The notes beneath the pieces are model-generated. The model did not search any database. It was given only the letters and a program-made list of their open reading frames with translations, and was not told where the DNA came from. From a candidate division WOR-3 bacterium (GTDB lineage: Bacteria; Hydrothermota; UBA3072), in contig JAGLZA010000102.1 in assembly GCA_023131835.1 (NCBI GenBank), positions 616 to 64,615 of the forward strand: a DNA stretch of 64,000 nucleotides, given 5' to 3'. A program made the translations under genes and the position numbers. How positions within the stretch are numbered: position 1 is the stretch's first letter; each line of letters opens with the position of its first letter. Of the stretch, positions 11,820 to 32,486 are shown in pieces.

Positions 11820-14800
11820 TTGGCAAAACAAGAGAAATCTAAGATAAATACTTCTCCTGGCAAATCTACATATACCCGGCCAAAGCTATTTGTGGGGAGG
11901 GAGAAGGAATTAACCCTTTTAAAGGAAGAATTCAATAAATTAGGTGAAGACCCACATAAACCAATTATAATAATTTCAGGTGAAGCGGGTATTGGCAAGA
12001 CCCGTTTATTAAAAAAGGTTAGAACTATATTAAAAAACTCAGTCTTTATAAAGGTAGAGTGTCAAAAAGAGGAAAAAGAACCCTATGCCTGTTGCAACAA
12101 AGTTGCCGACTCATTGATTAATCTCATTGAAAAGAACTATAAGGAATTTTTAAAAGTCTATGGAGATATACTTGTCACCCTGTCACCAAAGTTAAAGAGT
12201 AAAAGATACCTAAGGAAGATTAAACCCCTAAAGGAGATAGAGAAATACTATATCTTTGAAAAATTCCTGCAGTTTATTATAAATTTGCCAATAGAGAAAA
12301 ATATTGTGATAGCCCTGGAGGATTCTCAATATCTTAGCAAGGAATCAATTGAATTTCTTAAATATTTGACACTCGGGATGCCAGTTACATCAAATATAAT
12401 TTTCATTGTAACCTACAGAGAGGAAGAAAAACCTGATGACCTTATTGAGTTTGAAAAGGCAATAGAAGGTCACCTTATCAAGATTCTGCTTGAGAGATTA
12501 AATATTCAATCTACAAGGAAGTTTATAACTTCTATGATAGGAGAAATAGAAGAAAATGAACTTGAATATATTTCAGATAAAATATTTAAAAAGACCGCAG
12601 GCGTTCCACTCTTTATAGAACACTTTGTGAGACTATTGATAGAGGAAAAAGCCTTAAAAAAAGAAGAAGATACCTGGGTAATAAACAAAGATAGATTATC
12701 CGGAATAGAGTTAACCGGAACAACCCTGCAAATAATTCAGGAGAAACTAAAGAGGGTTCCCAATAAAAAGTTAATGAGAGTGATTCAATATGCATCTATT
12801 ATGGGTGGTGAATACATTAATAGTTTAATCTTGAATGAAATTATGGATAAAGATATTCAGGAGGAACTTGAGACATTAAACAACCAATGGATTTTGAGAA
12901 AAGAGAGCATAGAGGGGAATGAGAGATTCAAATTTGCTCATCCTATGATAAAAGAGATTGCATATCAAATGATACCCGAGGAGAAGAAAAAGGAATTACA
13001 TAAGAAGGTTGGACTTGTATTAGAGAAACATTTCCCGGAAGAAAAAGCGATGCTCGCATATCACTTTTCACTTGCCGGGGTCAAAAATAAAGCATACAAG
13101 TATTCACTTAAGGCAGCAGAGAATGCAGAGGGGAATTTTGCTTATCTGGACACAATACCACTCTATGAAACTGCCTTGAGATTCACACCTAATGAAACAA
13201 AGTCCACAGAAATAAAGATCAAATTAGCTGCATTATGTAGCATTAGCAGTAACTTTGAAAAAGGCGTAAAGTATTTAAATGAGGTAATTTCGCAAAAAAT
13301 ACGAGGAAAAATAAAAGTAAAGGCAATGGTAGAATTAATGAGGATTAAAATACTGCAGGGTAAAATTAACGAAGCCTATAAAATTGGGGAAAGCACTTTG
13401 AATTTAACCGCTAAAGGAACTTCCAAAGCAAAAGCTGAAATTTATACAATACTTGGACAAATATTTGCTCTCAAGGGTAAATGCGGTAAAGCAAAGGATT
13501 ATCTGATGCAATCTTTACCAATAGGAGACAAATTAGGGGATAAGGAACTCCAGGCAGAAACAAGAAATGTGATGGGAGCAATTTATTGGTTTATGGGTGA
13601 AAACAATATGGCAGTTAAAAGTTTTAAAGAAGCATTGAAATTTGCAAAGAATAAGAATACCATAGCTAAAATATGTTCAAACTTAGGGACTACATGTGAT
13701 GAAATGAACAATTCCAAAGAAGCAGAATTTTATTTTGAAAGGACAATAGAGATTAATAAAAAAATCGGGAATATGAGGGATTTAGGAGTAGCATATAATA
13801 ATTTTGGATTGAAACTTCAGGGACTGGGAAGAATAAATGATGCACTGAAGTATTATAAGATAGCTTTAGAATATACAAAAAGAATAGGATATAAAGCATT
13901 ACTTCCTCTGGTATATATCAATATAGGAAGAGTATACGCTATGTTTAATAATGCAACCATGGCAATAGAGTATTGCAATAAGTCCCTCAAGTTATTAGAT
14001 GATGAGCAAAGTGAAATTTGGATAATTTACAACGTTTACGAAATCGCCGGGGACATACATCTCTATTTAGAGGATTTTAGCGCCTCGATCCAATACTATA
14101 AAAAGTCAATGGAATTAGTAAAGAAATTAAATAATAATGAAAAATTGAACAGAACCCTTATTCAATTATCAGACATATACGCTGATAAAGGTAATCTTGA
14201 TAAGGCCAAAGACTTGTTGCTAAAAGTAGAAAAATACGCAAAAGATAAAAAAAATACAAAACTACTTGGGTTATGTCATAGGGTAAGAGCAAAGATTATA
14301 CAAAATAATTCACCACAGGATGCGATGAGGTATTTAGAAGACAGTCTGGAGGCATTTAATACCCCTCGATCAGGAACAGAGAAGGCGCTGAGCCTTTACG
14401 AAATGGGTAAATTATATCTAAAAATGAATAAATACCAGGACGCACTCGATGTGTTTTTAGAGACCAAGGAGATTCTACAGAAAAGAGAAGAGCTTTACTG
14501 GCTTAAAAAGGTGCAAAACTCAATTAAAGAGGTTGGAAAATTACTCTCTATCCTACCAAAACGGGTAAGTCTGGAGGCTAGTGTATTAACTTCTATAGTA
14601 AAATTTGCGAGTAGAAAGATCCCCTTGGATAGATTTATCAAGGAAGTGCTTACATTTGTAAAAAGTACCCTGCAGATAAATCAAACCGCTGTAATCATCT
14701 TTGCAGATGGAAAGATGCAAAAGGTTTATTCAAATGAAGAAATAAACGGAGAAACACAACAAGATATTGCAAGAATAAGTAAATCAGTCTACCAGAGGAA

Positions 14801-15974
14801 GGAATTTATGCTTACTCAAGAAGGATTATCACTCTATATTCCTATTAAGACAGAAGATAGGATTGAGGGCATTTTCTATATGAGAGAAGAATTAAACCGA
14901 TTTGAAACAGAGACAATAGAATTCCTGCAACTGTTGAGCTCCATTTTAGGTATAGGTATTGAATATATTAGATTACGCGAAAAATGCCCAACAGTACTTT
15001 TACAAAGAGAAAAGGTACCCCTTAGATTTGATAACATTATTGGTGAGAGTGAATCGATGCAGAAGGTTTATAATCTCATAAAATCCTGTATTGGATCAGA
15101 TGTAGCGATATTACTTGAGGGTGAGACCGGAGTTGGTAAGGAATTAGTGGCAAAGGCAATACATTCTCACAGTAAGAGGAAGGGGAATTTTGTACCTATC
15201 TATTGTGGTGGAATGCCGTACTCTTTATTTGAAGGAGAAATTTTTGGATATAAGAAGGGTTCATTCACCGGGGCATTCCATGACAAACGAGGATTACTTG
15301 AGGAAGCCGATGGAGGCACAATTCTCTTAGACGAGATAACCTCAATCCCTTTATCAATTCAGGCAAAACTCCTGCGTGTCCTACAGGAGGGTGAATTCAG
15401 AAGATTAGGTGAAACAAAACATAGAAAAGTAGATGCACAAATAATCTCGGCAACCAATCAAAACATCGAAGAATTGCTCAACAGAGGAGAATTTAGACTA
15501 GACCTGTTTTACAGAATCAGTACTATAAGGATAATAATACCACCTTTAAGAGAGAGAAAGGAAGATATCCCATTGCTGGCAAATTACTTCTTAGTAAGAT
15601 TTAATAAAAAAATTGACAGGGATATAAGAGGATTCTCTCAAGAAGCGATGCAAACAATGATAAATTATAGATGGGAAGGGAATGTGCGTGAACTCGAACA
15701 TGAAATAGAAAGATTGACAGCAATAACTGAGAAAGAGATTATATCAGTTGATGACCTCAAGAAAGAAATAAAAGAAACAAAACAAATCGACAGTAGAAAT
15801 CCTGCGAGCTTATATGAATTTATACAAGACAAAGAACGTAAATATATATCTAAGGCATTAACCCAATGCAATTTTAACATATCCAGAACAGCTAAATTAT
15901 TGAAAGTTAGCAGAACCACAGTATATAGAAAAATAGAAGAACTCCAAATACCCCTGCATCACAAATCGCAATAA
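11820..15974 (+). CDS. Giant sigma54-dependent transcriptional activator with N-terminal STAND-like AAA+ ATPase (AAA_16-like), TPR array and GAF-like domain (paralog 1)
   Basis: 1384 aa from a TTG start. It has an N-terminal P-loop GEAGIGKTRLL, TPR-like repeats centrally, a sigma54-interaction domain (GESESMQKVYNLI...LLEGETGVGKELVAKAIH...GAFTGA...) and a C-terminal Fis-type HTH ISRTAKLLKVSRTTVYRKI. Confidence 0.8.
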   Translation: MAKQEKSKINTSPGKSTYTRPKLFVGREKELTLLKEEFNKLGEDPHKPIIIISGEAGIGKTRLLKKVRTILKNSVFIKVECQKEEKEPYACCNKVADSLINLIEKNYKEFLKVYGDILVTLSPKLKSKRYLRKIKPLKEIEKYYIFEKFLQFIINLPIEKNIVIALEDSQYLSKESIEFLKYLTLGMPVTSNIIFIVTYREEEKPDDLIEFEKAIEGHLIKILLERLNIQSTRKFITSMIGEIEENELEYISDKIFKKTAGVPLFIEHFVRLLIEEKALKKEEDTWVINKDRLSGIELTGTTLQIIQEKLKRVPNKKLMRVIQYASIMGGEYINSLILNEIMDKDIQEELETLNNQWILRKESIEGNERFKFAHPMIKEIAYQMIPEEKKKELHKKVGLVLEKHFPEEKAMLAYHFSLAGVKNKAYKYSLKAAENAEGNFAYLDTIPLYETALRFTPNETKSTEIKIKLAALCSISSNFEKGVKYLNEVISQKIRGKIKVKAMVELMRIKILQGKINEAYKIGESTLNLTAKGTSKAKAEIYTILGQIFALKGKCGKAKDYLMQSLPIGDKLGDKELQAETRNVMGAIYWFMGENNMAVKSFKEALKFAKNKNTIAKICSNLGTTCDEMNNSKEAEFYFERTIEINKKIGNMRDLGVAYNNFGLKLQGLGRINDALKYYKIALEYTKRIGYKALLPLVYINIGRVYAMFNNATMAIEYCNKSLKLLDDEQSEIWIIYNVYEIAGDIHLYLEDFSASIQYYKKSMELVKKLNNNEKLNRTLIQLSDIYADKGNLDKAKDLLLKVEKYAKDKKNTKLLGLCHRVRAKIIQNNSPQDAMRYLEDSLEAFNTPRSGTEKALSLYEMGKLYLKMNKYQDALDVFLETKEILQKREELYWLKKVQNSIKEVGKLLSILPKRVSLEASVLTSIVKFASRKIPLDRFIKEVLTFVKSTLQINQTAVIIFADGKMQKVYSNEEINGETQQDIARISKSVYQRKEFMLTQEGLSLYIPIKTEDRIEGIFYMREELNRFETETIEFLQLLSSILGIGIEYIRLREKCPTVLLQREKVPLRFDNIIGESESMQKVYNLIKSCIGSDVAILLEGETGVGKELVAKAIHSHSKRKGNFVPIYCGGMPYSLFEGEIFGYKKGSFTGAFHDKRGLLEEADGGTILLDEITSIPLSIQAKLLRVLQEGEFRRLGETKHRKVDAQIISATNQNIEELLNRGEFRLDLFYRISTIRIIIPPLRERKEDIPLLANYFLVRFNKKIDRDIRGFSQEAMQTMINYRWEGNVRELEHEIERLTAITEKEIISVDDLKKEIKETKQIDSRNPASLYEFIQDKERKYISKALTQCNFNISRTAKLLKVSRTTVYRKIEELQIPLHHKSQ

Positions 15975-16090
15975 TACTCCTTCTTAACTCACCTTAAAAA
16001 TTAGTTATTCCTTCAATCCACAACAAAATTTCCAAAAGTGTTACATTTTCGGGATTCAAAAAACCAGTAATACCAATGCCTTCCGAATTG

Positions 16091-16107
16091 TGTTCAACTT
16101 TTGAACA
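16091..16107. promoter_or_regulatory. Perfect palindrome TGTTCAA-N3-TTGAACA, candidate enhancer (UAS) for EBP paralog 1
   Basis: Lies about 190 bp upstream of the sigma54 promoter at 16293, and a half-site TTGAACA repeats about 60 bp downstream. Confidence 0.35.
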
Positions 16108-16292
16108 TTTTTTGGTAGATGGGTTTTTTGTAATTCATTGAACATCAAGAAGATATCACTGGAACGAAATTTGTTTTAGAAATTAATGGAGGTACAAATG
16201 CAGGTTGAGCAGAAGGCGAAAACTAATGAAGTGAGTGAAAGTAGAGAGCGGTTCTATTATGGGTTCAATTCAAAAAAAGGAGGTCATCAAAC

Positions 16293-16310
16293 CTGGCTAA
16301 AATTATGCAC
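16293..16310 (+). promoter_or_regulatory. Sigma54 (-24/-12) promoter
   Basis: cTGGCtaaaattaTGCAc matches TGGC-N8-TGCA with the GG and GC elements 10 nt apart. Sits about 105 nt upstream of the T9SS cargo gene start and directly downstream of the EBP gene. Confidence 0.6.
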
Positions 16311-16415
16311 TCCTTTGCCCCTTGGGAGCAAAGAGATGAAAAAGGGGTACTATTCAGTTTTTTGGAAAGGATAAATATGTCGGGAAAAGTCAAAAACCAT
16401 AATAAAGGGGGAAAG

Positions 16416-18566
16416 ATGAGTAAGCATAGTAACTTTTCATGGGTAAGATTGTTTTTCTGTGTATGCTTAATTCTTATGTTTGCTATTCCAGTGTTTGCTG
16501 TTGATAAGGTAGTTCTATTTGTTGACCAGGATTACTATGATGCAGCAAGGGCTGATATACAAAAGTGGTATTGTTATATTAGCAATCATACAAAGTATGA
16601 CGCGGTAAAACAAGTAATTGACAATGATGAGATAGGTGATATTGAATCAATAAGGGATGCATTCTTTAGCTTGGACATCATGTATCGACAAAATGGAGAT
16701 AGACTTAAAGGAATAATCCTTATTGGTGATGAAAGTCAGATACCTGCTCCTCCAACAATAATCTCTGGAATATATGGTGTTAATGATAACATATATGGAG
16801 ATTTTGGTCGTGATGGTTCTGATTGGTTACCGAATGCGGATGGTTATTATACAAGTGCAACCTTCCCCACAGATTATCATCAGGAAGCCTGGGTTGCAAG
16901 ATATACTGCTCATTCCTATGGAGAAGGGAACGACCTTTCTTCCTCGCAGATTAATACAACCTTACATAACTATTATCTAAAAAGAGCAGGAGAGGATCAG
17001 CACGGTTCTGAAGGGAAGATTATTACAGACCTTACAAATAATAGTGACTTGACATGGGAAAACAGGCAAGAAATTATGCATGCATTTAGTAGTTGTGCCT
17101 GGTATGCTAATGAAAATATATTAACAAGGGCAAAGCAATGGTATAAGGATGATTGTAAGGCATTTATTATAAACGGTCATGGATCGTGGGCTCACTGTGG
17201 GGATTGGGAAGCTGAGAATGCTGACGAAGATGGTTCGTCAACATCGCCTAAGATAGCCATCTATGACGGTTGCTCTACTGGACGATGGACTATAAGTCCT
17301 ACCAATTCCCTGACCCTGTGCACTATCAATTCCAGCACTTCAAATACCATATCTGCCCTCGGTTATGGTATGGACGCCCTGATTGCGACTTATTATCATG
17401 GCTGGGAAGATTATCCTTATAAGAGTCTATATAGATGTATTCAGGAACAGCCATATATTGGGGAAGCCCTTGTTACCTGGATAAATAATGTGGTTAGAAC
17501 TGGATATTTTGATGGTGGGCATCCAATTGCTGCAACCACTCTTAATCTTTTTGGAGATGGTTCTATAAATTTTATCTATCAACCAGGGCATACTCATTGT
17601 TACGATGAGTTCGAAACCGATCCTACTTCTGATTTTACATGGTTTGGTGGAACTCATAGCTATAATACCACTGATGAATGGTTGAACTTAAATGCACATA
17701 ACTCACCCCAGTATGTTTGCGCTGATTATAAAGAACAAACAACTAAGCATACAGTTTTTCAGGCCGACTTTCGTTTTAAAAATAACTCAAATAATAATGC
17801 GATAATGATGCTCTTTGCCAGAGTGGATCCAAACACAAACCCCGGAACCAGCGGAAGTTCAGGAAGCTACTGGGGTGCTATTGGCTTTGATGGTGGTTCA
17901 GGTTATGCTAACTATTGGAGTGGAGTAGGTAAGGTTACAGGAACATCCTGGCAGAAATTGGCTTCTTATAACTCAGACGTACCAAAGCCTAAACTGAATC
18001 AGTGGTATACTATAAAGCTTACCGCAATTGGGTCTTCTATAAAGTTGTACCTCGATGACCGCCTTGTTGCTCAAGCAACGGATAATTCTATTACACACAA
18101 TGGCCAGGGAGCAATTCAGCCTTGCTATGGCGATGCTTACATCGATAACCTCGTTTTTGCCTGGGGTGAGTGCTTTGGTGATGCAAAGTCAGCAGGATCT
18201 GAATATGCTAAGAATGATTCACATTATCCGGTATTGATTGGCGAATACTTACCCCCCAGACCTCCAGAGATTTCTGAAACAACAATTCCTGATGTCTATT
18301 CCCTTTCTATCAGTCCAAATCCTTTTGTTAGCTCATCTACCATCAAATTTACATTATCAAAGAAAACTGGAGTTAGTCTTAAGATATATAATGTTTCCGG
18401 TCAGTGTGTAAAGACGCTCTTAAGGAAAGAATTTGAAGCTGGATATTATGATGTTCGATGGGACGGTAGAGATGAATCAGGAATAAGTTTGAGTAGAGGT
18501 GTTTACTTCTGCAGGATGGAAACCGAGAATTTTAGACAAACAAGAAAACTTATCTTTATGAAATAA
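16416..18566 (+). CDS. T9SS-sorted secreted protein, putative clan-CD (gingipain C25/caspase-like) cysteine peptidase with LamG/ConA-like domain
   Basis: ATG at 16416 with a GGGGGA SD; signal peptide MSKHSNFSWVRLFFCVCLILMFAIPVFA. His/Cys motifs IINGHGSWAHCG...IAIYDGCSTG. C-terminal T9SS sorting domain (SISPNPF...LKIYNVSGQCVKTL...GVYFCRM). Confidence 0.6.
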   Translation: MSKHSNFSWVRLFFCVCLILMFAIPVFAVDKVVLFVDQDYYDAARADIQKWYCYISNHTKYDAVKQVIDNDEIGDIESIRDAFFSLDIMYRQNGDRLKGIILIGDESQIPAPPTIISGIYGVNDNIYGDFGRDGSDWLPNADGYYTSATFPTDYHQEAWVARYTAHSYGEGNDLSSSQINTTLHNYYLKRAGEDQHGSEGKIITDLTNNSDLTWENRQEIMHAFSSCAWYANENILTRAKQWYKDDCKAFIINGHGSWAHCGDWEAENADEDGSSTSPKIAIYDGCSTGRWTISPTNSLTLCTINSSTSNTISALGYGMDALIATYYHGWEDYPYKSLYRCIQEQPYIGEALVTWINNVVRTGYFDGGHPIAATTLNLFGDGSINFIYQPGHTHCYDEFETDPTSDFTWFGGTHSYNTTDEWLNLNAHNSPQYVCADYKEQTTKHTVFQADFRFKNNSNNNAIMMLFARVDPNTNPGTSGSSGSYWGAIGFDGGSGYANYWSGVGKVTGTSWQKLASYNSDVPKPKLNQWYTIKLTAIGSSIKLYLDDRLVAQATDNSITHNGQGAIQPCYGDAYIDNLVFAWGECFGDAKSAGSEYAKNDSHYPVLIGEYLPPRPPEISETTIPDVYSLSISPNPFVSSSTIKFTLSKKTGVSLKIYNVSGQCVKTLLRKEFEAGYYDVRWDGRDESGISLSRGVYFCRMETENFRQTRKLIFMK

Positions 18567-18584
18567 ACACAACCTCCAGACAAT

Positions 18585-18614
18585 AAAAGGGAGGGATGCC
18601 CCTCCCTTTTATTT
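18585..18614. terminator. Bidirectional rho-independent terminator between convergent genes
   Basis: AAAA-GGGAGGG-atgc-CCCTCCC-TTTT. Confidence 0.7.
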
Positions 18615-20351
18615 TAACGCAAGCCAGAAGAGGAAATGCCTCCCCAATCCCGGATAATCCCTATCATCAAAGGTATAACCAAAATGACTCATATATTGTC
18701 GATCAAGGATATTCTCAACCCCTATCCCGATTGTACAATCAGCGAATATCTTCTCAACGGATGCATCTAATATGAGATAGGATTCCTCTTTTTTCCATTC
18801 TCCCGGATAGGAAAACCATTTCTTTCTCTCTCCGACCCAATTACCTGATATCTCCAATCTAACAGGGCCCTCATATGCTAATATCCCGGAGAAGGAATGC
18901 TCTGGTTGATATTGTAGATCCCTCTTTAAGGAATCGAGATCATCATACCCATCCATATAAGAATAGGAAACAGAATATGAGAGTGCTTTATATTCACCCC
19001 TGTATCCAACATCAACACCATATATCCTTGATCTATAGATATTATAAGGTTTCCAATCAGACCCATATCCTATCCTATCCGCTATCTCCTTTATATATGC
19101 AGACAGTGAAAATTCATCCACCCCTATTCCGGCATTTAAACCTGTGGAATATTCCGGAGACAGACTCTCGTTGGAATAAAGAGGCCAGTATAGATCGTTA
19201 AGCGTTGGTGCACGAAAGGCCGTACCAACAGATAGATGGGTATTAACTGAGCCAGTTGAGCGCAAACCCAGGGTAACAGATGGATGAAATCCAAAACTTC
19301 TAAACCAATCTCCGCGGAGAGAGCCGAATAGATTTAACATCCAGAGTTTAGAAGAACTTGATATACTGATACCTGCGTTCCTCTCCCCGGCATACCAGGA
19401 AACGGTATCACCACTGGATTTGAACTGATGCATCAATATGGAATCCTGTTCAAGATGTAAGGAGAGAGTAATTCCCTTATATAAAACTTTTGCATCTAAC
19501 TGTGCAACAAGGGTCGTATAATTATCATCCTCATCGATTGTGTCACCACTAAAATAATCCTTGTATCGATGACTCGGCTCCATTCGTTCCCACCTGATAC
19601 TCGGTGACAACAATAATCCAAAGTCCCCAATACCAAATCTCTTTTGATAGGAACCATCCAATAGTTTGGTATGTTGATGATCGTATAGGTTGGTTGTTTT
19701 GGCATCTCCAAATTCAGGGATAAAATTCTTATCTGGCATAGGCCCCGGCAATCCAACCTTGCGATATGTCCAGAGGAGATTAAAACCCTTCCAACCCAGG
19801 GAAGTAGAATACCGTTCATAATCTGTATTATTCCTGTCACCTCTCCCTTTATCTATATGTAGATTCCCGGATAGATCCCATCTTTTCCCTCCGATATCTG
19901 TCAAAAATCCCGGTAGAGAATTCCCTGACATCTTAAAATGGTTTTCTTTTGCCTCTGTTACGAAATTGACTATACCCCCCGAAGCATTAGAACCAAGCAA
20001 AACAGATGAAGGACCCTTTATTATCTCAACCCGCGAAACAGAATTTAACGGAATAGCAGAAAGGTCAAAGCCTCCAGTTCTTGGGTCATTTATCCTGTGT
20101 CCGTTAAGAAGTATAAGCGCGTGGCTCGGTGATGACCCACGTATGAGAACCTGCGAAAGCCCTCCCGGGGAACCATATTTAGTAATCCTGATTCCTGCCT
20201 TCTTTTCTAATAGTTCTCCGAGAGATGAAATAGTAGATACATCTTCTATTTTGATTATCCTTACATCATAGGGTAGATTATTGAATCTTTCTGCGGTCAC
20301 TGTGATCCCGGAAGATATCCATTCTGTGATACCTAAAAGAATTAGCAGCAT
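18609..20351 (-). CDS. btuB: TonB-dependent outer-membrane receptor (BtuB-like, cobalamin-linked)
   Basis: Plug domain ...LIRGSSPSHALILLNGHRINDP...IEIIKGPSSVLLGSNASGGIVNF and a beta-barrel. The AAGGAGG SD lies inside the upstream gene's 3' end, and the operon is controlled by a cobalamin riboswitch. Confidence 0.7.
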   Translation of the reverse strand: MLLILLGITEWISSGITVTAERFNNLPYDVRIIKIEDVSTISSLGELLEKKAGIRITKYGSPGGLSQVLIRGSSPSHALILLNGHRINDPRTGGFDLSAIPLNSVSRVEIIKGPSSVLLGSNASGGIVNFVTEAKENHFKMSGNSLPGFLTDIGGKRWDLSGNLHIDKGRGDRNNTDYERYSTSLGWKGFNLLWTYRKVGLPGPMPDKNFIPEFGDAKTTNLYDHQHTKLLDGSYQKRFGIGDFGLLLSPSIRWERMEPSHRYKDYFSGDTIDEDDNYTTLVAQLDAKVLYKGITLSLHLEQDSILMHQFKSSGDTVSWYAGERNAGISISSSSKLWMLNLFGSLRGDWFRSFGFHPSVTLGLRSTGSVNTHLSVGTAFRAPTLNDLYWPLYSNESLSPEYSTGLNAGIGVDEFSLSAYIKEIADRIGYGSDWKPYNIYRSRIYGVDVGYRGEYKALSYSVSYSYMDGYDDLDSLKRDLQYQPEHSFSGILAYEGPVRLEISGNWVGERKKWFSYPGEWKKEESYLILDASVEKIFADCTIGIGVENILDRQYMSHFGYTFDDRDYPGLGRHFLFWLALK

Positions 20352-20352
20352 A

Positions 20353-20859: not shown

Positions 20860-20874
20860 TCTTTATAAACAAAA

Positions 20875-21062
20875 ATGGCTACCGAGGTAGCCAAAATCAT
20901 AAAATCTCCCTCCCCTCGGAGTTTTTTAGATAGCAGGTCTCCTGACTTATGACCAACCTACTCATCGCGCCTTCCCATCAATTTGACAGTGGCTATATGC
21001 GACTTTCGCTGTCAAATACAGTAGCGGGGCTGCAACGGATTCTCACCGTTTTCCCTTAACTA
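20875..21062 (-). promoter_or_regulatory. Cobalamin (B12) riboswitch
   Basis: Minus-strand reading shows GGTGAGAATCCGTTGCAGCCCCGCTACTGT...GCCACTG...B12 box AGTCAGGAGACCTGCT, followed by a GGCTACCTCGGTAGCC hairpin next to the start codon. Confidence 0.75.
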
Positions 21063-21119
21063 TCTACTATGTTAAATAATAAATAATGTTTTTTTTGAGA
21101 TTGTCAAGGGGGATAGCAA

Positions 21120-21447: not shown

Positions 21448-21482
21448 GGCTTCCTATTTCTGAAATAAGTGCAAAAGACCGC

Positions 21483-24728: not shown

Positions 24729-25085
24729 GTTAACCTCCTTCTTTTACATATTTCTGATTTGAGCAATTATACATAATTCAACAAATAATGTTATCATTCA
24801 TGGTAGGGCTGTCAGGGTTTTCCAGATTCACCCTCTACTCCCCATTTTTTAAACCGCATATATTTAGCAAAAATTAATGGACATAATATCATACTGTCAA
24901 ACTCCGAGCTTGAGGGTATCCATTTCAATTAGTGCGAGGTGATATCGCTTAGAAACCCTCTCGGAGGCCGAGCGGGAGCCACAATTTCCTCGGCTTTCGG
25001 AAATTGACCTCGTTTTCGAAAACGATATTACCGAGCAACTAATCATAAAAATACACCTGCTTTTTAAAGTGATTCTACATTAGTG

Positions 25086-27941
25086 TCAGAATAGAATCAG
25101 CTTCTCTGTCCTCTGAAAAGCCCTCTTATCTCTTATGGACTTTGCTTCCATCCTGATAAAGTAGATTCCTACAGAGAGTTTCTCTTGAGCTTTAGAATTT
25201 TTCCAGTGTAATTGATAAACTCCAGCATCTCTCTTTTCATCCATCAGTGTCTTTCGCAGCCGTCCGAGAGGTCCATATATCTTCAATGTAACCCTACTCT
25301 CCACAGGAAAACTGAAGTCTATCCTGAAATCTCCTTTTGAGGGATTCGGATATACAGGACTCAAAGAGAATGAAACTGGTGCGCCCACGATAGGATTCTC
25401 TTGAATTCCCGTTGGATCTGTCAGCCACTGGACGCACTTCTGCAGAAGGAGAGGACGGGCAATAGAATCGATCTCATAAAAATTAAAGGTTATATACACA
25501 GCATTATGCGTGGTATCCTCTACCTGTAAACCGCAGGCCTGGTTTGTATCTCCATGGGCAACCCAGGCACCATCCCCGTAGGTAAAGATACTCCTGGAAA
25601 AAGACATCAAAAGGTCAGGAGCGACTACATCCGGAGCACGGGCTGTTACAGGAATCGTATCTCCCTCTGTAAAGAACCCGGGCACACCCCATATCTCGCC
25701 ACTGGTGATTGTAGTGGGATCGTCATCCAATCCATCATTCCCACCTCCCAGATAGTCAGCCCAGAGATAATGCTGGAAGAGTTCCAGGTTTGGATATCCG
25801 TTGGGATGTCCATGCTGCTGATATCCAAGATCACCACTGGTGATAAAAAACTTTTGCTTATTAAGGGAATCCCCTGAATCGAGCCAGGTTAGCAGTGCAT
25901 TAACCTCATTTGAGTCCGGAGACCCTGGTGTAGGCATACCGAAAAAGATATACTCATAAAAATCCAAAACAGAATTTTCCTGGTCCCTGTCATAGGTATC
26001 AAACGAATATCCTGCTTCAGTAAGGGCCGTGACATAGGCGTTATAATCAGCCCCTGTATAGTCCTGTGTTCCACTATAGTTGAATAGCATCGTTACACCT
26101 GAAGAAGGAAGGATAGTAAAGGTATAGAAAGAAGTAGGTGCATCGGAAGGGTCAGTTCCCCTGTTTTGATCTGCCGAGGCATCTGTGGCAGCAAAGTAGT
26201 AGTTTACAACAGTCCCTCTGGGTTGTGCAGGTATATGATAATAATATGTATTGGTAGATGGATTCATACTATCGGATGGAACGGGTATCCATCCACCCCC
26301 GACATCATAGTAAAGGGAGTCTAAATCCAGACCAGAAGCATCAACAATCTGTGTGGTAATCACAGGGATTGTATCAAAGGTGTTCTTCTTAGGAGAAGTG
26401 GTAAAAACAGGGGATTGATTATCCTCACCTATATAAAACCTGATGGCAAGCGAATCTATCAGAATATTTCCAATAGGTTCTCCATCAACAAGATAGGCAA
26501 GACCATCTGTGCCATCGCTGTTCTCCATTCCTGTTGTAGCACTCTTACCCTGGGTATAATTATCATCGTTTAATGAAGCATCCAGATACTGGTATGCGAT
26601 GTCTCCATTCTCATGAAGGAGTATCTCAAAGGTTAAAGAATCATTAAATACGCCAACCCTCCGCACCTTATGCCATTCGATTACAAAGATTCGGTCAGGG
26701 GAGGTTCCGATTAACTTGGAATAGATATTTCCGCCGGTAACAACATTAAGGTCATCCCAGAAGATATAACAGGCATTGTTGGGAACGCTAACATCAGGGA
26801 TAGAACCATTGAATGGACTGATAATCCCTGAAGACGGACCAAATCCTATGAGACCATTTGTTCCCACATATAATGTATCATACGAAAAACCATAAAACGA
26901 GAAAGAAAAATCTATCGGGATTCCAAAACATTCATCATCTCCGGAGCCAACAATCGTTCCATCTGTAGCATCTATCCACTGAAAAACAGGACCATCGGTT
27001 GTATCACTATCAATCCATCTATAGCCAAAGGCATCCGGTCCACCTGTATGTAGCCTTGAATATATAACCTTATGTTTTAGATCATTGGTCGTGTCTGAAT
27101 CATCTGCAAGAAGTGTCTTAACATAGACCGTATCTATACCACTTGAAGTCGGGGTCCATTGTAAGAAGTTGATAGTATCCTCATCATCAGGTGCAAGGGT
27201 GAGGGAATAAGTGGTAGTATCATTGTAGAGCATCGCCCCTGATGAATTCTTGATCCAGCAGGTAACCTCAAAATCCGTCTCCGAAGAAGTCCCATAATTC
27301 TTGATAATAGCCGATGGAATGTAAGATGAATCCGGATAGAAGAGATCCGGTGGGGTCAGGATTGAAACAACCCCTATATCATGGTTTACTGCAGTAGTTG
27401 CAACTAACTTAATGTCGTCAAGACACCAGGCATCAGCATAGCCATTGGCTGAGGTATGGACAAAGGCGATATAGATGGTTTTACCTGCATATACAGAACC
27501 CAGACCGAGGTTCACAGAATCCCATGATATGGGTGTAGTTCCTGGTAGAGTAAAGACTGTATCTGTAAACGATGAGGTGCTTGTATCACTCTCGGATATC
27601 AGGATATACTCAGGTCCATCCGAGTAACTTGCCCACTGGAGATAATGCCAGAAAGCAAGGTTTAAGTTATTTCCCGATGGGATGATTATGGAATCCGTAA
27701 CAAGCCGCTCATTCATAGTATCTCCGGATACACCATCCTGGGAAAAAGCTCTATAGGTTCCTGAATGTGGACTATAACTACTCTGCATCCAGGTTTCTCC
27801 GGATGTCTGGGTTCCGAGATTCTTTATATGCCAGCCCGTTGGTGGAAAAGTTCCTTCAAATCCTTCATCTAAAAGTACGGTCTGTGCCCACAATGATGCA
27901 GGAATTAATAAGACAAAGAGAAACAACAAACATCTACGCAT
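25086..27941 (-). CDS. T9SS-sorted secreted protein of unknown function (choice-of-anchor-J-like N-terminus)
   Basis: 951 aa; signal peptide MRRCLLFLFVLLIPASLWAQT; N-terminal DEGFEGTFPPTGW; C-terminal T9SS domain SLSPVYPNPSKG...LKIYGPLG...GIYFIRMEA. Confidence 0.65.
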   Translation of the reverse strand: MRRCLLFLFVLLIPASLWAQTVLLDEGFEGTFPPTGWHIKNLGTQTSGETWMQSSYSPHSGTYRAFSQDGVSGDTMNERLVTDSIIIPSGNNLNLAFWHYLQWASYSDGPEYILISESDTSTSSFTDTVFTLPGTTPISWDSVNLGLGSVYAGKTIYIAFVHTSANGYADAWCLDDIKLVATTAVNHDIGVVSILTPPDLFYPDSSYIPSAIIKNYGTSSETDFEVTCWIKNSSGAMLYNDTTTYSLTLAPDDEDTINFLQWTPTSSGIDTVYVKTLLADDSDTTNDLKHKVIYSRLHTGGPDAFGYRWIDSDTTDGPVFQWIDATDGTIVGSGDDECFGIPIDFSFSFYGFSYDTLYVGTNGLIGFGPSSGIISPFNGSIPDVSVPNNACYIFWDDLNVVTGGNIYSKLIGTSPDRIFVIEWHKVRRVGVFNDSLTFEILLHENGDIAYQYLDASLNDDNYTQGKSATTGMENSDGTDGLAYLVDGEPIGNILIDSLAIRFYIGEDNQSPVFTTSPKKNTFDTIPVITTQIVDASGLDLDSLYYDVGGGWIPVPSDSMNPSTNTYYYHIPAQPRGTVVNYYFAATDASADQNRGTDPSDAPTSFYTFTILPSSGVTMLFNYSGTQDYTGADYNAYVTALTEAGYSFDTYDRDQENSVLDFYEYIFFGMPTPGSPDSNEVNALLTWLDSGDSLNKQKFFITSGDLGYQQHGHPNGYPNLELFQHYLWADYLGGGNDGLDDDPTTITSGEIWGVPGFFTEGDTIPVTARAPDVVAPDLLMSFSRSIFTYGDGAWVAHGDTNQACGLQVEDTTHNAVYITFNFYEIDSIARPLLLQKCVQWLTDPTGIQENPIVGAPVSFSLSPVYPNPSKGDFRIDFSFPVESRVTLKIYGPLGRLRKTLMDEKRDAGVYQLHWKNSKAQEKLSVGIYFIRMEAKSIRDKRAFQRTEKLILF

Positions 27942-28018
27942 AATAACCTCCCCTTCAAATTCTTAGGTTTCATGTTCTATACCTCTTTCCAAATTGAATA
28001 ACTCAATATATTATATTT

Positions 28019-28035
28019 ATACAAATTTCGTGCCA
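28019..28035 (-). promoter_or_regulatory. Sigma54 (-24/-12) promoter for the 25086-27941 gene
   Basis: Minus strand reads TGGCACG-aaat-TTGTA, a near-consensus TGGCACG-N4-TTGCW, about 75 nt upstream of the start codon. Confidence 0.7.
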
Positions 28036-28120
28036 AAAAATGTATATAAAACGGAACATCTTTAATTTCAAGGCTTTGTAAGCATATATTACTGAATATG
28101 ATAAGAAAGTCGCCTATTCG

Positions 28121-28136
28121 GTCTCAAAAATGAGAC
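28121..28136. promoter_or_regulatory. Palindrome GTCTCA-N4-TGAGAC, candidate UAS for EBP paralog 2 (second copy AGTCTCA-caat-TGAGACT at 28210-28227)
   Basis: Two similar palindromes 85 and 175 bp upstream of the sigma54 promoter, the second overlapping the EBP2 stop codon. Confidence 0.35.
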
Positions 28137-28225
28137 AAAAAAATTGTTAAAATATTCTGAAGGGCTTTATTTGCAAAGTTTGCTCCAGATTCTGTATGTT
28201 TTTTGGTGAAGTCTCACAATTGAGA

Positions 28226-31200
28226 CTATTCTTGCTCTTTGAATTCTTTGAGTTTTCTGTATAGTGTAGCTCTGCCAATTCTTAATAATTTGGCTGCTTC
28301 GGGTGCATTAAAATTGCATTGTTCCAATGCCCTTAAGATATATTCGCGCTCCCTGTTTTTCATAAATTTATCTAATCTCACAATACTCTTGTTTTTAGTT
28401 AGTTTTGTCTCTCTTATTTCTTCCTTTAAATCATCAATTGTTATGCTTTCTTTCTTACTCATTGCTACTAATCTTTCTATTTCATGTTCAAGTTCGCGCA
28501 CATTCCCTTCCCATCTATAATTAATCAGTGCTTGCATTGCTTCCTCTGTAAATCCTTTCATGTTTTTGCCAAATCTCTTATTAAATTTCTCCAAAAAGTG
28601 ATTTACTGATAATGGAATATCATCTTTTCGTTCTCTTAAAGTTGGTATTTTCATCCTCATAGTGGTAATTCTATAGAACAGGTCCTTTCTAAATTCACCT
28701 CTTGCGATTAATTTTTCAATGTCTTGATTGGTTGCTGAGATTATACGAGCATCTACTTTTTTAAGTTTTGTCTCGCCTAACCTTCTGAATTTGCCATCTT
28801 GTAATACACGTAAGAGCTTCCCCTGAATTGATAAAGGAATTGAGGTTATTTCGTCGAAAAAAATCGTACCTCCATTGGCTTCTTCCAGTAATCCAAGTTT
28901 ATCATGTATCGCCCCGGTGAATGCACCCTTTTTATATCCAAAAAATTCGCCCTCAAATAGAGAATGCGGCATTCCACCACAATAGATTGGTACAAAACTT
29001 CCCTTTCTCCGGCTGTAAGAATGTATTGCACTGGCTACTAATTCCTTCCCAACTCCTGTTTCACCCTCAAGCAAAACTGTTACATCTGATTCGGCGCAGT
29101 TTTTTATGAGATTATAAATCTTCTGCATTGCTTTACTCTCACCAACGATATTACCGAAGTGCAAAATTGCCTTTTTTCCTTGCAAAGACTTTGTCGGAAA
29201 TTCTTCGCGTAATTTAATATGTTCAATCCCTATCCAAAAAATAGAGCTTAGTAGTTTTAGGAATTCTATTACTTCGGGTTCAAATTGGCTTAACTTTTTT
29301 TGCATATAAAAAGCACCCTTAATCCTACTTTCTACCTCAATGGGTATACAGAGTGTTAATCCTTTCTGTTTAAGCACTAATTCCTTCTTCTGATAGACTG
29401 ATTTACCTGTCAGGGTAATATCTCGTTGTGTTTTTTCGTCTATTTCTTCATTCGAATAAACCCTCTGTATTTCTCCATCTTCAAAAAATATTATTGCAGT
29501 CTGACCGATCTGCAGAGTACTCCTCACGAGTGTTAACGCCTCTTCTATAAACCTATCCAATGAGATCTTGCTACTAATAAGTCTCACTATTGGTAATAAT
29601 ACTCCAATCTCCAGGCTCACCTGTTTTGGTAAGACAGGTAGTAGTTCTTCAACTTCTCCAATTGATTTTTCTATCTTTTCAAGCCAGTAAGCCTCTTCTC
29701 TTTCTTGTTGAATCTCTTTTGCCTGTAGAAGCACATCAAGTGCATCCTGGTATTCATCCATTTTTAGGTATAATATACCCATTTCATAAAGGGTCTGCAC
29801 CTTTTCTGTCTCTAATAATGGGTTACCAAATGCATCTAAACTATTTTCTAAATACCTCATCGCTTCTTGCGGTGAATCCTTTTTTATAATTTTAGATCTT
29901 GTCCTGTAACTTAAACCAAGCAGTGTTGTATTCTTATTATCTCTTTCGTACTCTTCTACTTTTGACAACAAGTCTTCGGCTTCGTCAAGATTGCCTTTAT
30001 CAGCATATATGTCAGAGAGTAGGAGGCGTACCTTGCTCAATTCTGGTAAATTATTTAATTCTTTTCCTAATTCCATTGATTTTTTCAGATAAAGGATCGC
30101 TGTATCAAAATCCTCGCAGAGGAAATATATGTCCCCGGCATTTCGGTAAACATTAAAAACTATCCAGGGTTCCCTATGGCTCTCATTCTCTAATAACTCC
30201 AGGGCTTTATTACAATACTCTATTGCCAGGTCTGATTTATTAATTTGAGCGTACACTCTCCCTATATTGGAATATACCAGGGGTAAGAATACTTTATATG
30301 CTATTCGTTTTGCATACTCTAAAGATAACCTATAGTATTTCAGTGCATCATTTGATCTTCCTCTTATCTGATGGGTTGATGCAAGATTATTATATGCTAT
30401 TCCCAGACGTCTTATATTTCCGATTTTCCTACTTAATTCTATTGACTTTTGAGTATAAAAATCACTTTTTTCGATATCCTCCATTCCATGGTATACAAAC
30501 CCTAAGTTTATATATATTTTAGCCTTGGTATCTTTACGCTCGGCAAGCTCCAATGCTTCTTTCAAATGCTTAATTGCAATATTAAATTCACCCCAACGAC
30601 CATAAGTTACTCCTATTATAGTCCTTGTTTCTGCTTGAAGTTCCTTATCCTCCAATTTATCTCCTATCAATAGAGCCTTATTTAGATAATTCAATGCTTT
30701 ACTATATTCATTCTGTAAGACGAATATTTTTCCAAATATTATATACACTTCAGCTTTTGCTTTAGAGACTCCTTTACCGATTAACTTCAAAGCGTTTTCA
30801 CCAAGTTTAACTGCTTCATCATTCTCACCTTGCAACCTTTTAATCTCCATTAATTCTACCATTGCCTTTACTTTAAGCTCCCTATCTTTTTTTTGCGAAA
30901 TCACCTCATTTAAATGCTTCACGCCTTTCTCAAAATTACGGGTGATTCTATATAACCTTGCTAATCGGACCCTTATTTTTGCGTTTTTAACCCCAGTAGG
31001 TGCAAATCGAAGTGCGGTTTCATAGAGTGATATTGTGTCCAGATAAGCAAAATTCCTTTCTGCATTTACCCCTGCCGCAAGTGAATACTTATATGCTTTG
31101 TCTTTGACCCCGGCGAGTGAAAAATGATATGCAAGCATCGCTTTTTCTTCCGGGAGATGTTTCTCTAATACAAATCCAACCTTCCTATGTGATTCCTTTT

Positions 31201-32368
31201 TCTTATCTTGAGGTATCATTTGATATGCAACCTCTTTTATCATGGGATGAGCAAATTTGAATCTCTCTTTTCCTTCTATGGTTTCCTTTCTCAAGATCCA
31301 TTGGTTATTCAATACTTTAAGTTCCCTGCGAATATCTTTATCCATAATCTCATTCAAGATTACACTATCTATATATTCACCACCCATAATAGATGCATAT
31401 TGAACCACTCTCATTAACTTTTTATTATGAATCTTTTCCAACTTCTCTTGTATTATTTGTAAACATGTCCCGGTTAACTCTATTCCGGATAATTTATCTT
31501 CGTTTATTATCCAGGTATCTTCTTCTTTTGCTAAGGCTTTCTCCTCTATCAATAATTTCACAAGGTGTTCAATAAAGAGCGGAACACCCGCAGTCTTTTT
31601 AAATATTTTATCTGAGATATATTCAAGTTCATTTTCTTCTATTTCTCCTATCATAGAAGTTATAAACTTCCTTGTAGATTGAATATTCAATCTCTCAAGC
31701 AGAATCTTGATAAGATAACCTTCTATTGCCTTTTCAAATTCAATAAGGGCATCAGGTTTTTCTTCTTCTCTGTAGGTTATAATAAAAATTATATTTGATG
31801 TAATCGGCATACTGAGTGTTAAATACTTAAGAAATTCAATTGACTCCTTCCTGATGTATTGAAAATCCTCAAGGGCTATCACAATACTTTTCTCTATCGG
31901 CAGATTTATGATGAATTGCAAGAATCTTTCGAAGATGTAGTATTTCTCTATCTCTTTTAAGGGTTCAACCGTTCTCAAGTATCTTTTGTTTCTTAACCCT
32001 GGAGATAGGCTTACAAGTATATCTCCGTAACCCTTTATAAATTCCTTATAATTCTCTTCAATTAGATCAATCAATGAGTTGATTATCTTGTTAAAACAGG
32101 TATAAGGCTCCTCTTCCTCTTTCTGACATTCTGCCTTTATAAAAACTTCGTTTTTTAATATAGTTCTAACTTCTTCCAATAAGCGGGTTCTGCCAATGCC
32201 TGCTTCACCTGAAATTATTATAACTGGTTTATGTGGAAAATTCCCTAATTTATTGAGTTCTTCCTTTAGAAGGACTAATTCTTCCTCTCTCCCTACAAAC
32301 GCCTTTGGTCGAGTATATGTAAGTTTGCCAGGAGAAGTATTTATCTTAGATTTCTCTTGTTTTGCCAA
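28226..32368 (-). CDS. Giant sigma54-dependent activator with STAND-like AAA+/TPR/GAF N-terminal region (paralog 2)
   Basis: Collinear with 11820-15974 with the same domain order, but a different HTH (APEAAKLLRIGRATLYRKL). A TTG start at 32368 with a GGAGGGGG SD matches paralog 1; the ORF-track ATG at 32383 would add only 5 aa. Confidence 0.8.
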   Translation of the reverse strand: MAKQEKSKINTSPGKLTYTRPKAFVGREEELVLLKEELNKLGNFPHKPVIIISGEAGIGRTRLLEEVRTILKNEVFIKAECQKEEEEPYTCFNKIINSLIDLIEENYKEFIKGYGDILVSLSPGLRNKRYLRTVEPLKEIEKYYIFERFLQFIINLPIEKSIVIALEDFQYIRKESIEFLKYLTLSMPITSNIIFIITYREEEKPDALIEFEKAIEGYLIKILLERLNIQSTRKFITSMIGEIEENELEYISDKIFKKTAGVPLFIEHLVKLLIEEKALAKEEDTWIINEDKLSGIELTGTCLQIIQEKLEKIHNKKLMRVVQYASIMGGEYIDSVILNEIMDKDIRRELKVLNNQWILRKETIEGKERFKFAHPMIKEVAYQMIPQDKKKESHRKVGFVLEKHLPEEKAMLAYHFSLAGVKDKAYKYSLAAGVNAERNFAYLDTISLYETALRFAPTGVKNAKIRVRLARLYRITRNFEKGVKHLNEVISQKKDRELKVKAMVELMEIKRLQGENDEAVKLGENALKLIGKGVSKAKAEVYIIFGKIFVLQNEYSKALNYLNKALLIGDKLEDKELQAETRTIIGVTYGRWGEFNIAIKHLKEALELAERKDTKAKIYINLGFVYHGMEDIEKSDFYTQKSIELSRKIGNIRRLGIAYNNLASTHQIRGRSNDALKYYRLSLEYAKRIAYKVFLPLVYSNIGRVYAQINKSDLAIEYCNKALELLENESHREPWIVFNVYRNAGDIYFLCEDFDTAILYLKKSMELGKELNNLPELSKVRLLLSDIYADKGNLDEAEDLLSKVEEYERDNKNTTLLGLSYRTRSKIIKKDSPQEAMRYLENSLDAFGNPLLETEKVQTLYEMGILYLKMDEYQDALDVLLQAKEIQQEREEAYWLEKIEKSIGEVEELLPVLPKQVSLEIGVLLPIVRLISSKISLDRFIEEALTLVRSTLQIGQTAIIFFEDGEIQRVYSNEEIDEKTQRDITLTGKSVYQKKELVLKQKGLTLCIPIEVESRIKGAFYMQKKLSQFEPEVIEFLKLLSSIFWIGIEHIKLREEFPTKSLQGKKAILHFGNIVGESKAMQKIYNLIKNCAESDVTVLLEGETGVGKELVASAIHSYSRRKGSFVPIYCGGMPHSLFEGEFFGYKKGAFTGAIHDKLGLLEEANGGTIFFDEITSIPLSIQGKLLRVLQDGKFRRLGETKLKKVDARIISATNQDIEKLIARGEFRKDLFYRITTMRMKIPTLRERKDDIPLSVNHFLEKFNKRFGKNMKGFTEEAMQALINYRWEGNVRELEHEIERLVAMSKKESITIDDLKEEIRETKLTKNKSIVRLDKFMKNREREYILRALEQCNFNAPEAAKLLRIGRATLYRKLKEFKEQE

Positions 32369-32486
32369 ATATACCCCCTCCAACTGATTTTAATAATAAT
32401 ATCTGTTCTCGATAAGTTTCTTTTCCATATTGAGCTTCAAATTCTTTAGGCCTCATATATCTCAAATTACTATATATATACAATTT

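Follow-up and report, generated by a model that had tools for sequence, protein, structure and literature searches.

Can a STAND-type switch (signal transduction ATPases with numerous domains) serve as the sensor of an activator of sigma54-dependent transcription, and which genes would such a protein control? The question is raised by a 64,000-nucleotide stretch of DNA (here the window) from a candidate division WOR-3 bacterium (contig JAGLZA010000102.1 of assembly GCA_023131835.1, positions 616 to 64,615), a phylum now listed as Caldifarciminota. Two long paralogous genes of the window, which we call EBP1 and EBP2 for enhancer-binding protein (EBP), each lie beside a gene for a secreted protein. 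We propose, with a probability of about 0.6, that EBP1 and EBP2 are STAND-sensed sigma54 activators of these adjacent genes. Computed directly were the domain order, the two folds, the intact sigma54-contact and ATPase motifs, the paralog-specific palindromes and a lineage-conserved -24/-12 motif. What is new here is an uncharacterised fusion of two known kinds of protein, in a sizeable family that has so far gone unremarked.

Architecture of the two regulators

The genes are convergent and their open reading frames (ORFs) encode 1384 and 1385 residues, with 69% identity over the full length and a single one-residue gap in an end-to-end alignment, in agreement with the preliminary description of this locus, which had noted two convergent paralogs of about 1385 residues. 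The genes and their parts (domain limits approximate) are as follows, including the helix-turn-helix (HTH) domains.

11820-15974, + strand: EBP1, ORF of 1384 residues
11889-13139, + strand: EBP1 STAND nucleotide-binding oligomerisation domain (NOD), residues 24-440
13137-14498, + strand: EBP1 tetratricopeptide repeat (TPR) array of about 450 residues, residues 440-893
14562-15005, + strand: EBP1 shortened GAF domain, residues 915-1062
15036-15794, + strand: EBP1 sigma54 AAA+ domain and lid, residues 1073-1325, with GSFTGA
15831-15941, + strand: EBP1 HTH_8, residues 1338-1374
28226-32383, - strand: EBP2, ORF of 1385 residues as listed, domain order as in EBP1
about 31049-32299, - strand: EBP2 NOD
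28391-29149, - strand: EBP2 sigma54 AAA+ domain, with GAFTGA
28241-28360, - strand: EBP2 HTH_8

For both genes the probable start codon is a TTG followed by AKQEKSK and preceded by a ribosome-binding site (GGGGT/GGAGGT; GGGGT in EBP1), and the position of this TTG is shared by EBP1, EBP2 and a third homolog, P0003. The true start of EBP2 is therefore probably the TTG at 32368, which would shorten the protein to 1380 residues.

Pfam reads both proteins in the same order: AAA_16 at the N-terminus (E 1.7e-16 and 6.7e-18), TPRs, a stretch of about 170 residues with no assignment, Sigma54_activat (PF00158; E 1.4e-63 and 1.9e-63, with the whole profile covered), AAA_lid_14 and HTH_8 (E 8.7e-11 and 3.5e-12). 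Matches to TPR_12, TPR_1/2/8 and TPR_MalT are spread over residues 440-893, where a search of the PDB also matches TPR proteins; the TPR-like region, first put at some 500 residues, thus comes to about 450. The loop that contacts sigma54 reads GSFTGA in EBP1 and GAFTGA in EBP2, and both versions retain the central F and T, which are critical residues of this motif (PMC3162934). The AAA+ Walker A (GETGVGKE), the Walker B (GGTILLDE / GGTIFFDE) and the FRxDLFYR stretch are likewise intact, bearing out the earlier claim of a complete sigma54 AAA+ module with a Fis-type HTH. The NifA and NorR models of NCBIfam match the AAA+ region as well, with every equivalog score below its cut-off.

For the N-terminal region we used structure prediction, because sequence searches against the PDB gave only TPR proteins or nothing; specifically, sequence-only searches returned nothing significant for the NOD and a profile search was swamped by TPR proteins. 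Residues 1-470 of EBP1 were modelled from an alignment of 26 homologs (mean predicted local distance difference test score, pLDDT, of 87.2), and a Foldseek search of the PDB with this model placed the STAND-TPR protein PH0952 (6mfv, 3.9e-11) and MalT (8bob, 1.9e-10) at the top, then Apaf-1 and CED-4. SSO1545 and plant NLRs are likewise among the best structural matches, and the matches also include Avs5 and Avs3. The FVGRE..EL...GEAGIG[KR]T motif is found in both EBPs. Across the 26 homologs, G54, G57, G59 and T61 of Walker A, D168 of Walker B and T259-G261-P263 are invariant, and R200 is conserved in at least 90%; in our reading, R200 is the likely sensor 1 arginine and G261-P263 the likely STAND GxP motif. 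Both Walker motifs are canonical in EBP1 and in the two other close homologs, P0003 and P0004, which also keep the sensor 1 Arg and the GxP motif. The sequence FKFAHP, with a candidate for the winged-helix His of the MHD-type position, is invariant in the four close EBPs, while this His is unconserved in the wider alignment. Furthermore, at E values of 1e-30 to 1e-40 the NOD (residues ~24-457) shows homology to NODs linked to Ser/Thr kinases, class 3 adenylate cyclases and KaiC-like ATPases, and the TOMM kinase/cyclase model of NCBIfam also matches it. The modelled fold and these motifs identify the N-terminal ~900 residues as a predicted MalT-type STAND module, that is, an NOD with a TPR sensor. 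The STAND-type N-terminal NTPase of the preliminary description (AAA_16 matches, FVGRE motif and STAND fold) is thereby upheld, as is its suggestion of two ATPase modules in one chain, on the fold evidence and the intact motifs.

The stretch without a Pfam assignment had been called GAF-like. It scores 18-24 bits with GAF, GAF_2 and GAF_3 against cut-offs of 22.4-28.6, below threshold yet consistently so in all four close EBPs, and iterated searches link it to above-threshold GAF regions of distant relatives. A sequence-only search of the PDB with the region gave nothing significant; nearly all of the 50 matches listed for its model (pLDDT 84.3) are GAF domains, the best of them including Nlh1 (4g3k), Nlh2 (4g3v) and NifA (8jrc). 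The GAF assignment thus stands in fold and in homology to true GAFs, but not at the Pfam threshold. Given this homology and this fold, the C-terminal 490 residues of the EBPs are a complete GAF-type activator of the NifA/Nlh kind, with the STAND-TPR module placed in front.

How widely is this arrangement found? Close relatives form only four clusters at 90% identity (65-100% identical), and all of those with a named source are from WOR-3. A search with residues 185-1384 against 1.84 billion cluster representatives, however, returned many proteins of 1,600-1,900 residues with a C-terminal sigma54 module. When the best 150 of the 50%-identity cluster representatives were typed with purpose-built profiles, at least 88 of these 150 had the order kinase-NOD-(GAF)-sigma54-(HTH) and about two dozen had no kinase; since several of the latter are partial sequences with 1,700-residue cluster mates, complete kinase-less forms are rare. 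In Pfam terms, members from WOR-3, Calditrichaeota and Planctomycetota share the order Pkinase, AAA_16/nSTAND3, TPR, GAF, Sigma54_activat, HTH_8, and another cluster comes from Acidobacteriota; in the source records their names are no more specific than "sigma 54-interacting transcriptional regulator" or "hypothetical protein". On sequence comparison, EBP1 and EBP2 are thus best described as an uncharacterised, kinase-less form of a large metagenomic family, Pkinase-STAND-TPR-GAF-sigma54-HTH. The STAND graft noted in the preliminary description is not peculiar to this genome: other EBPs with AAA_16 and TPR N-termini make up a large family in public data, mostly with the added Ser/Thr kinase. 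A scan of the contigs of species representatives with N-terminal peptides found one distant Saprospiraceae locus and no close relative, with patterns that were possibly too specific.

Literature searches turned up no paper on STAND/AAA_16-sigma54 activators, on Pkinase combined with Sigma54_activat, or on WOR-3 with the type IX secretion system (T9SS) or sigma54, nor any description of the N-terminal region as an already characterised EBP sensor. The 2008 study of the myxobacterial kinome by Perez et al. may mention kinase-sigma54 fusions. A survey of prokaryotic STAND proteins cites MalT, GutR and AfsR as its only transcriptional examples (PMC13581612).

Candidate promoters, palindromes and leader beside the regulator genes

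Each EBP gene is followed on its 3' side by palindromes of its own and by a -24/-12 type promoter that faces a secreted-protein gene, an arrangement that the preliminary description had correctly recognised. The elements concerned are the following.

16091-16107: candidate EBP1 enhancer, perfect palindrome TGTTCAA-CTT-TTGAACA, the only match in the window
16160-16175, + strand: P1, sigma54-type promoter candidate, TGGAACGAAATTTGTT, paralogous to P2; the motif recurs at seven other WOR-3 sites
16186-16415, + strand: conserved 5' leader (about 230 nt) separating P1 from the start codon of cargo 1 (nhmmer against five other copies)
16416-18566, + strand: cargo 1, 716 residues, signal peptide and T9SS type A sorting domain (Por_Secre_tail and FlgD_ig in Pfam)
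25086-27941, - strand: cargo 2, 951 residues, signal peptide and choice-of-anchor J (NF038128, 62.5 bits)
28020-28035, - strand: P2, sigma54-type promoter candidate, TGGCACGAAATTTGTA, at 79 nt from the ATG of cargo 2, on its 5' side
28121-28136: candidate EBP2 enhancer, proximal, perfect GTCTCA-N4-TGAGAC, starting at -101 from the P2 TGG
28211-28226: candidate EBP2 enhancer, distal, perfect GTCTCA-N4-TGAGAC, at -191 and abutting the EBP2 stop codon

P2 lies where a promoter had been suggested earlier (28019-28035) and has one mismatch to TGGCACG-N4-TTGCW, at the C of -12. P1 was found by searching with the sequence of P2. Transcription is predicted to start at about 16186 for cargo 1 and about 28008 for cargo 2. 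Both candidates have the GG and the exact spacing of a -24/-12 motif; neither is full consensus, each having T for C at -12. The earlier placement of the cargo 1 promoter, at 16293-16310, had to be abandoned. That site (TGGCTAAAATTATGCA) has three mismatches to the consensus and lies inside the conserved leader, of which five homologous copies lack the GC of -12, reading AGAT or ATAT where GC is needed, with two of the five lacking the GG as well; from these comparisons, 16160-16175 is the likely cargo 1 promoter.

The motif occurs twice in the 64 kb, in both cases shortly after the end of an EBP gene and directed towards the gene that follows. Outside the window it is found at seven intergenic sites in WOR-3 contigs: four in L001 (TGGAATGAAATTTGTATATA and variants) and one each in L002, L091 and L124, of which L001 and L002 are the contigs with the two other close homologs. 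Two of these are full-consensus copies (GGCACG-N4-TTGC), namely that of L002 (TGGCACGAAATTTGCT) and that of L124 (GGGCACGAAATTTGCG, after P0007, a kinase-bearing WOR-3 relative), and each lies directly after a STAND-EBP gene. Across 832 kb of scanned DNA, mostly unrelated metagenome contigs, the motif appeared only at the intergenic WOR-3 sites and in one chance match. A second -24/-12-like site at 28187-28172 (TGGAGCAAACTTTGCA) was set aside; it falls between the two EBP2 palindromes, at only 24 nt from the distal copy, and no other locus shows a counterpart. The only exact match to TGGYAY-N5-TTGCW in the window (TGGTATAAAACTTGCA, 55990-56005, - strand) falls inside an HdrB-like ORF and is probably due to chance, since one or more matches also turn up in 16 of 100 shuffled sequences.

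The palindromes were said to differ between the two promoters, and so they do. The one before cargo 1 (TGTTCAA-N3-TTGAACA) starts 69 nt before the TGG of P1 and has its centre some 87 nt ahead of the predicted transcription start; the two perfect copies of GTCTCA-N4-TGAGAC before cargo 2 lie 90 bp apart, with no other perfect copy in the window. Similar sites accompany other members of the group: in L001, the region after P0003 has TGTTCC-N6-GGAACA at -70, the same distance as that of the window site (-69), together with GTTCCA-N4-TGGAAC at -120, and L002 has two copies of TGTCC-N7-GGACA. Overall, the palindromes sit 50-190 bp upstream of the promoters. Enhancer sites typically lie at about -80 to -150, and the distances observed would fit such a geometry. 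The HTHs differ as well, as had been noted, with the second residue of the recognition helix changing together with the half-site: R-T-T in EBP1 and P0003 (TGTTC), R-A-T in EBP2 (GTCTC) and R-D-T in P0004 (TGTCC). This covariation of T, A and D is consistent with cognate regulator-palindrome pairs, four cases being no proof.

Two further arrangements of palindromes were seen. One is a third type, TGGTAAA-N3-TTTACCA, which is present at four promoters in tandem pairs with a spacing of about 21-22 bp, placed at about -99/-78 and -185/-163 relative to the promoter TGG (L001 about 3036-3150, 13360-13480 and 16170-16300; L091 about 1880-1990); no regulator for these sites was identified in the loci examined. 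The other is in L124 (7830-8240), where P0007 is followed by a GTGTAA-N3-TTACAC palindrome, the full-consensus promoter and a gene for a 62-aa secreted peptide; with this layout, the order of regulator, enhancer, promoter and target extends to the larger family.

The leader of cargo 1 is itself conserved. It matches five other copies (L001 3247-3478, 8170-8393, 13591-13810 and 16385-16627; L091 2079-2323) at nhmmer E values of 1e-42 to 1e-74, with a mean column identity of 72% in the alignment, and every copy has the same promoter in front and a secreted-protein gene or operon behind. No Rfam family matched at the gathering score, and none at E <= 1 on 16140-16440. RNAalifold folds the leader into four helices, two of which compete with an alternative hairpin; both of the mutually exclusive foldings are about 95% paired, and the compensatory changes (only 1-2 among six related sequences) are not significant. 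An RNA structure is thus plausible from this modelling, and the leader is a candidate for a new cis-regulatory RNA.

A small protein encoded by the leader was considered and rejected: the best-conserved block of the 55-62 aa leader ORFs is read in different frames across the copies, copy L001d lacks an ATG and is interrupted by a TAG in frame, the ORF of copy L091 has a different end, and a search of 5.8 billion proteins gave only the cluster of the query itself. The leader does contain a conserved Shine-Dalgarno sequence with an AUG, GGAGAGGAUAAAGAUG (GGAAAGGAUAAAUAUG in the window copy, 16362-16379), inside the predicted last helix, P4. A short upstream ORF begins at this AUG; it is rich in Lys, varies in length with a minimum of 6 codons, ends near or overlaps the main start codon and in the window copy is in frame with cargo 1. 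A metagenome scan with an 18-nt leader motif gave mostly chance matches and one new real leader sequence, found in three loci.

For the EBP genes themselves, consensus matching alone gave the following candidates.

11607-11634, + strand: sigma70-type promoter candidate for EBP1, TTGACA-16-TACAAT, 11/12, the top site in 11100-16500, about 190 nt upstream of the EBP1 start
32487-32515, - strand: sigma70-type promoter candidate for EBP2, TTGACA-17-TATATT, 11/12, the top site in 24600-33000

The ~45 nt on the 5' side of both EBP starts are also conserved, being the tail of short ORFs of 51 and 45 aa that extend across the EBP start (11770-11842; 32346-32420). Their counterpart in L001 is a 112-aa gene (3479-3817) behind a sigma54 promoter and a leader, so the L001 EBP may be under sigma54 control, as a cascade or by autoregulation; the window copies, unlike L001, carry the sigma70-type promoters there. 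Directly upstream of this promoter-leader-EBP unit, L001 encodes (2-3034) a STAND (AAA_16) and TPR protein that has no sigma54 or DNA-binding module. The EBP genes are also set apart by composition, having a G+C content of 0.33-0.35 against 0.39-0.43 in their neighbours and a strongly purine-skewed coding strand (12000-16000; 28000-32000), which may reflect amino-acid composition or a separate origin.

A proposed mode of action and its rivals

In the mechanism we favour, each regulator would be made constitutively from its own sigma70-type promoter and, by means of its Fis-type HTH, would occupy the palindromes that directly follow its gene. By analogy with MalT and AfsR, a signal arriving at the TPR array would convert the closed STAND module into one that has bound ATP and self-associates. 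This switch could then relieve a hold of the GAF domain on the AAA+ module or raise the local AAA+ concentration, in either case favouring a hexamer, a coupling drawn by analogy with Nlh1, Nlh2 and NifA. The hexamer would spend ATP on opening sigma54-RNA polymerase at TGG(C/A)ACGAAATTTGT, and the output would be a secreted protein, probably a T9SS substrate. In the case of cargo 1, the 230-nt leader of the transcript may add a second, post-initiation control.

Several observations weigh against this proposal. The pairing of regulators with palindromes rests on adjacency and four data points. The GAF domain is without some 21 residues in its middle that its relatives have (window 14562-15005; 29300-29700), a gap found in the four kinase-less EBPs by comparison with all 20 aligned kinase-bearing relatives. 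The STAND Walker A of EBP2 is GEAGIGRT (residues 58-65, about 32189-32212, - strand), with Arg in place of the catalytic Lys, a residue shared by only 3 of ~100 family members; it is not a sequencing error, because a second assembly (P0002) has the Arg too, and a STAND switch so altered might not cycle. On the side of the promoters, the -12 base is T and not the canonical C in seven of the nine copies, including both in the window (C in 2/9), a weak sigma70 reading, TTGGCA-17-TAATAT (9/12), overlaps P2, and no rpoN was seen among the window ORFs scanned.

The best-surviving alternative, though in our judgement an unlikely one, makes of the STAND-TPR region a docking scaffold in which the P-loop is structural only and a partner bound to the TPRs controls the GAF-AAA+ unit as NifL controls NifA. 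An anti-activator might fill this role, as might a separate Ser/Thr kinase that replaces the fused one of the relatives. The Arg in the Walker A of EBP2, the loss from EBP1 and EBP2 of the Ser/Thr kinase fused in most relatives, the nature of TPR arrays as typical protein-binding modules and the STAND-TPR protein without an output domain encoded beside the EBP of L001 would all be in keeping with a scaffold. However, EBP1, P0003 and P0004 keep all of the STAND motifs, which is unexpected in a decayed ATPase, and an exchange of Lys for Arg need not abolish nucleotide binding.

A second alternative, which we consider improbable, concerns the DNA. The TGGAAYGAAATTTGTATATA motif might be a lineage-specific sigma70-type promoter or an operator, in which case the cargo genes would be independent of the EBPs and these would act elsewhere. 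The prevailing T at -12 agrees with this, as do the AT-rich TATATA behind the motif, the sigma70 reading over P2 and the lack of an rpoN in the ORFs scanned. Yet the GG and TTTG blocks stand at the exact sigma54 spacing in 9/9 copies, with two copies of full consensus; three of the sites lie directly after STAND-EBP genes in independent contigs; no sigma70-like site of at least 9/12 accompanies P1 on the coding strand of 15975-16415, before cargo 1; and the paired palindromes 50-190 bp upstream fit enhancers.

Most improbable of all is that the EBPs are defence-type STAND receptors of the Avs- or NLR-like sort, whose TPRs would sense a phage or other foreign protein and switch on secreted or envelope effectors: most defence-associated STAND sensors are indeed TPR-like helical repeats (PMC13581612) and the fold matches of the NOD include Avs5 and Avs3, but PADLOC gives no STAND or Avs match (only RtcR-type sigma54 models and generic TPR), the neighbours are housekeeping genes with no defence island, and the relatives of the NOD in sequence are kinase-, cyclase- and KaiC-linked STAND-TPR proteins, with MalT among its fold matches.

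Taking EBP1 and EBP2 once more as STAND-sensed sigma54 activators, a broader proposal can be put forward tentatively, as a possibility we hold to be short of probable. The STAND-sigma54 fusions may represent an undescribed class of two-motor switch, in which a MalT/NLR-like STAND platform would oligomerise on a signal and so template the AAA+ ring that remodels sigma54 polymerase. Every such unit would have an enhancer to itself and a -24/-12 promoter particular to its lineage, and some targets would add a new structured leader RNA in which an upstream ORF is sequestered. Perhaps such a "transcriptional NLR" decides on the export of surface proteins in WOR-3 and in several other phyla.

Bracketed interval, significance and known systems

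The interval between the two EBP genes had been described as an island of giant T9SS cargo. T9SS-tagged genes are indeed present, but a B12 uptake operon lies among them, as does a third cargo gene before which our motif scan found no sigma54 motif, and "giant" overstates proteins of 716, 951 and 1081 residues. Against the TIGR04183 cut-off of 23, cargo 1 scores 38.2 bits and cargo 3 scores 33.4 bits, so that these two carry the sorting domain expected of T9SS substrates, while cargo 2 falls just under at 20.7 bits. The other features of the interval, and one outside it, are these.

18609-20351, - strand: BtuB-like TonB-dependent receptor, behind the riboswitch
20353-20859, - strand: ECF-type (energy-coupling factor) S component, behind the riboswitch
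20915-21079, - strand: cobalamin riboswitch (103.8 bits), between cargo 1 and cargo 3
21483-24728: cargo 3, 1081 residues, sorting domain with PKD and propeller repeats
1158-1332, - strand: two adjacent tRNA genes

The stretch 18609-21079 on the - strand is the B12 uptake operon. On one side, the interval is flanked by ispA, dxs, lpxC, fabZ, lpxA, thi4 and deoC, and on the other by Mrp/Nuo-like, Hdr and hydrogenase genes.

Sigma54 activators, like STAND proteins, are textbook cases of an oligomerising ATPase switch, but the two kinds have so far been studied separately. Known STAND oligomers vary in subunit number. A natural fusion of the two raises the question of how a variable STAND platform is coupled to an AAA+ ring that has to be hexameric, and that of what is gained from a second nucleotide checkpoint at a promoter already silent without its activator. 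A characterised member would annotate many generically named proteins across Acidobacteriota, Calditrichota, Planctomycetota and WOR-3. For the uncultured WOR-3, the locus offers a first testable regulatory unit for secreted or T9SS-tagged proteins, complete with regulator, enhancer, promoter consensus and leader; because regulator, sites, promoter and target lie within 5-7 kb, heterologous reconstitution is realistic.

Among known systems close to the EBPs is the metagenomic Pkinase-STAND-TPR-GAF-sigma54-HTH family itself (~1,600-1,900 aa), which shares the core order and has homologous NOD, GAF and AAA+ domains, but whose members are 25-38% identical to EBP1 and carry an N-terminal Ser/Thr kinase of their own and a full-length GAF. 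MalT, the activator of the E. coli maltose regulon and the model STAND transcription factor, has the STAND and TPR fold in common with the EBPs. Its C-terminal HTH is of the LuxR type and it activates by recruiting sigma70 polymerase, whereas the output of the EBPs is a GAF, a sigma54 AAA+ motor and a Fis HTH, with a second ATPase that would work on the polymerase. AfsR, the SARP-NOD-TPR protein of Streptomyces and a non-immune STAND regulator (PMC13581612), resembles them in combining a STAND NOD and TPRs within a transcription activator. It differs in its N-terminal SARP DNA-binding domain and its sigma70-type polymerase, and has neither a sigma54 module nor a GAF. AfsR is phosphorylated by the Ser/Thr kinase AfsK, a link that is paralleled by the Ser/Thr kinase fused in most relatives of the EBPs.

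From the side of the sigma54 activators, NifA, Nlh1 and Nlh2 of A. aeolicus, NorR and FhlA have the same C-terminal unit of GAF, AAA+ (GAFTGA) and HTH_8. These proteins begin at the GAF, whereas the EBPs add 900 N-terminal residues of STAND and TPR and have a GAF that is ~21 residues shorter. RtcR (CARF-AAA+-HTH) is likewise a sigma54 activator with an unconventional sensor, and the RtcR-type models of PADLOC match the AAA+-HTH part of the EBPs. PrsR, by its NCBIfam name the PEP-CTERM-box regulator, has a model (TIGR02915) that matches the EBPs at 306.7 bits, below its cut-off. The sensor is a CARF domain in RtcR and a receiver domain in PrsR, neither protein has a STAND module, and the systems for secretion and sorting are different. 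PrsR controls proteins that share one C-terminal sorting signal, and the likeness extends to the EBPs in that they adjoin genes for T9SS-tagged proteins.

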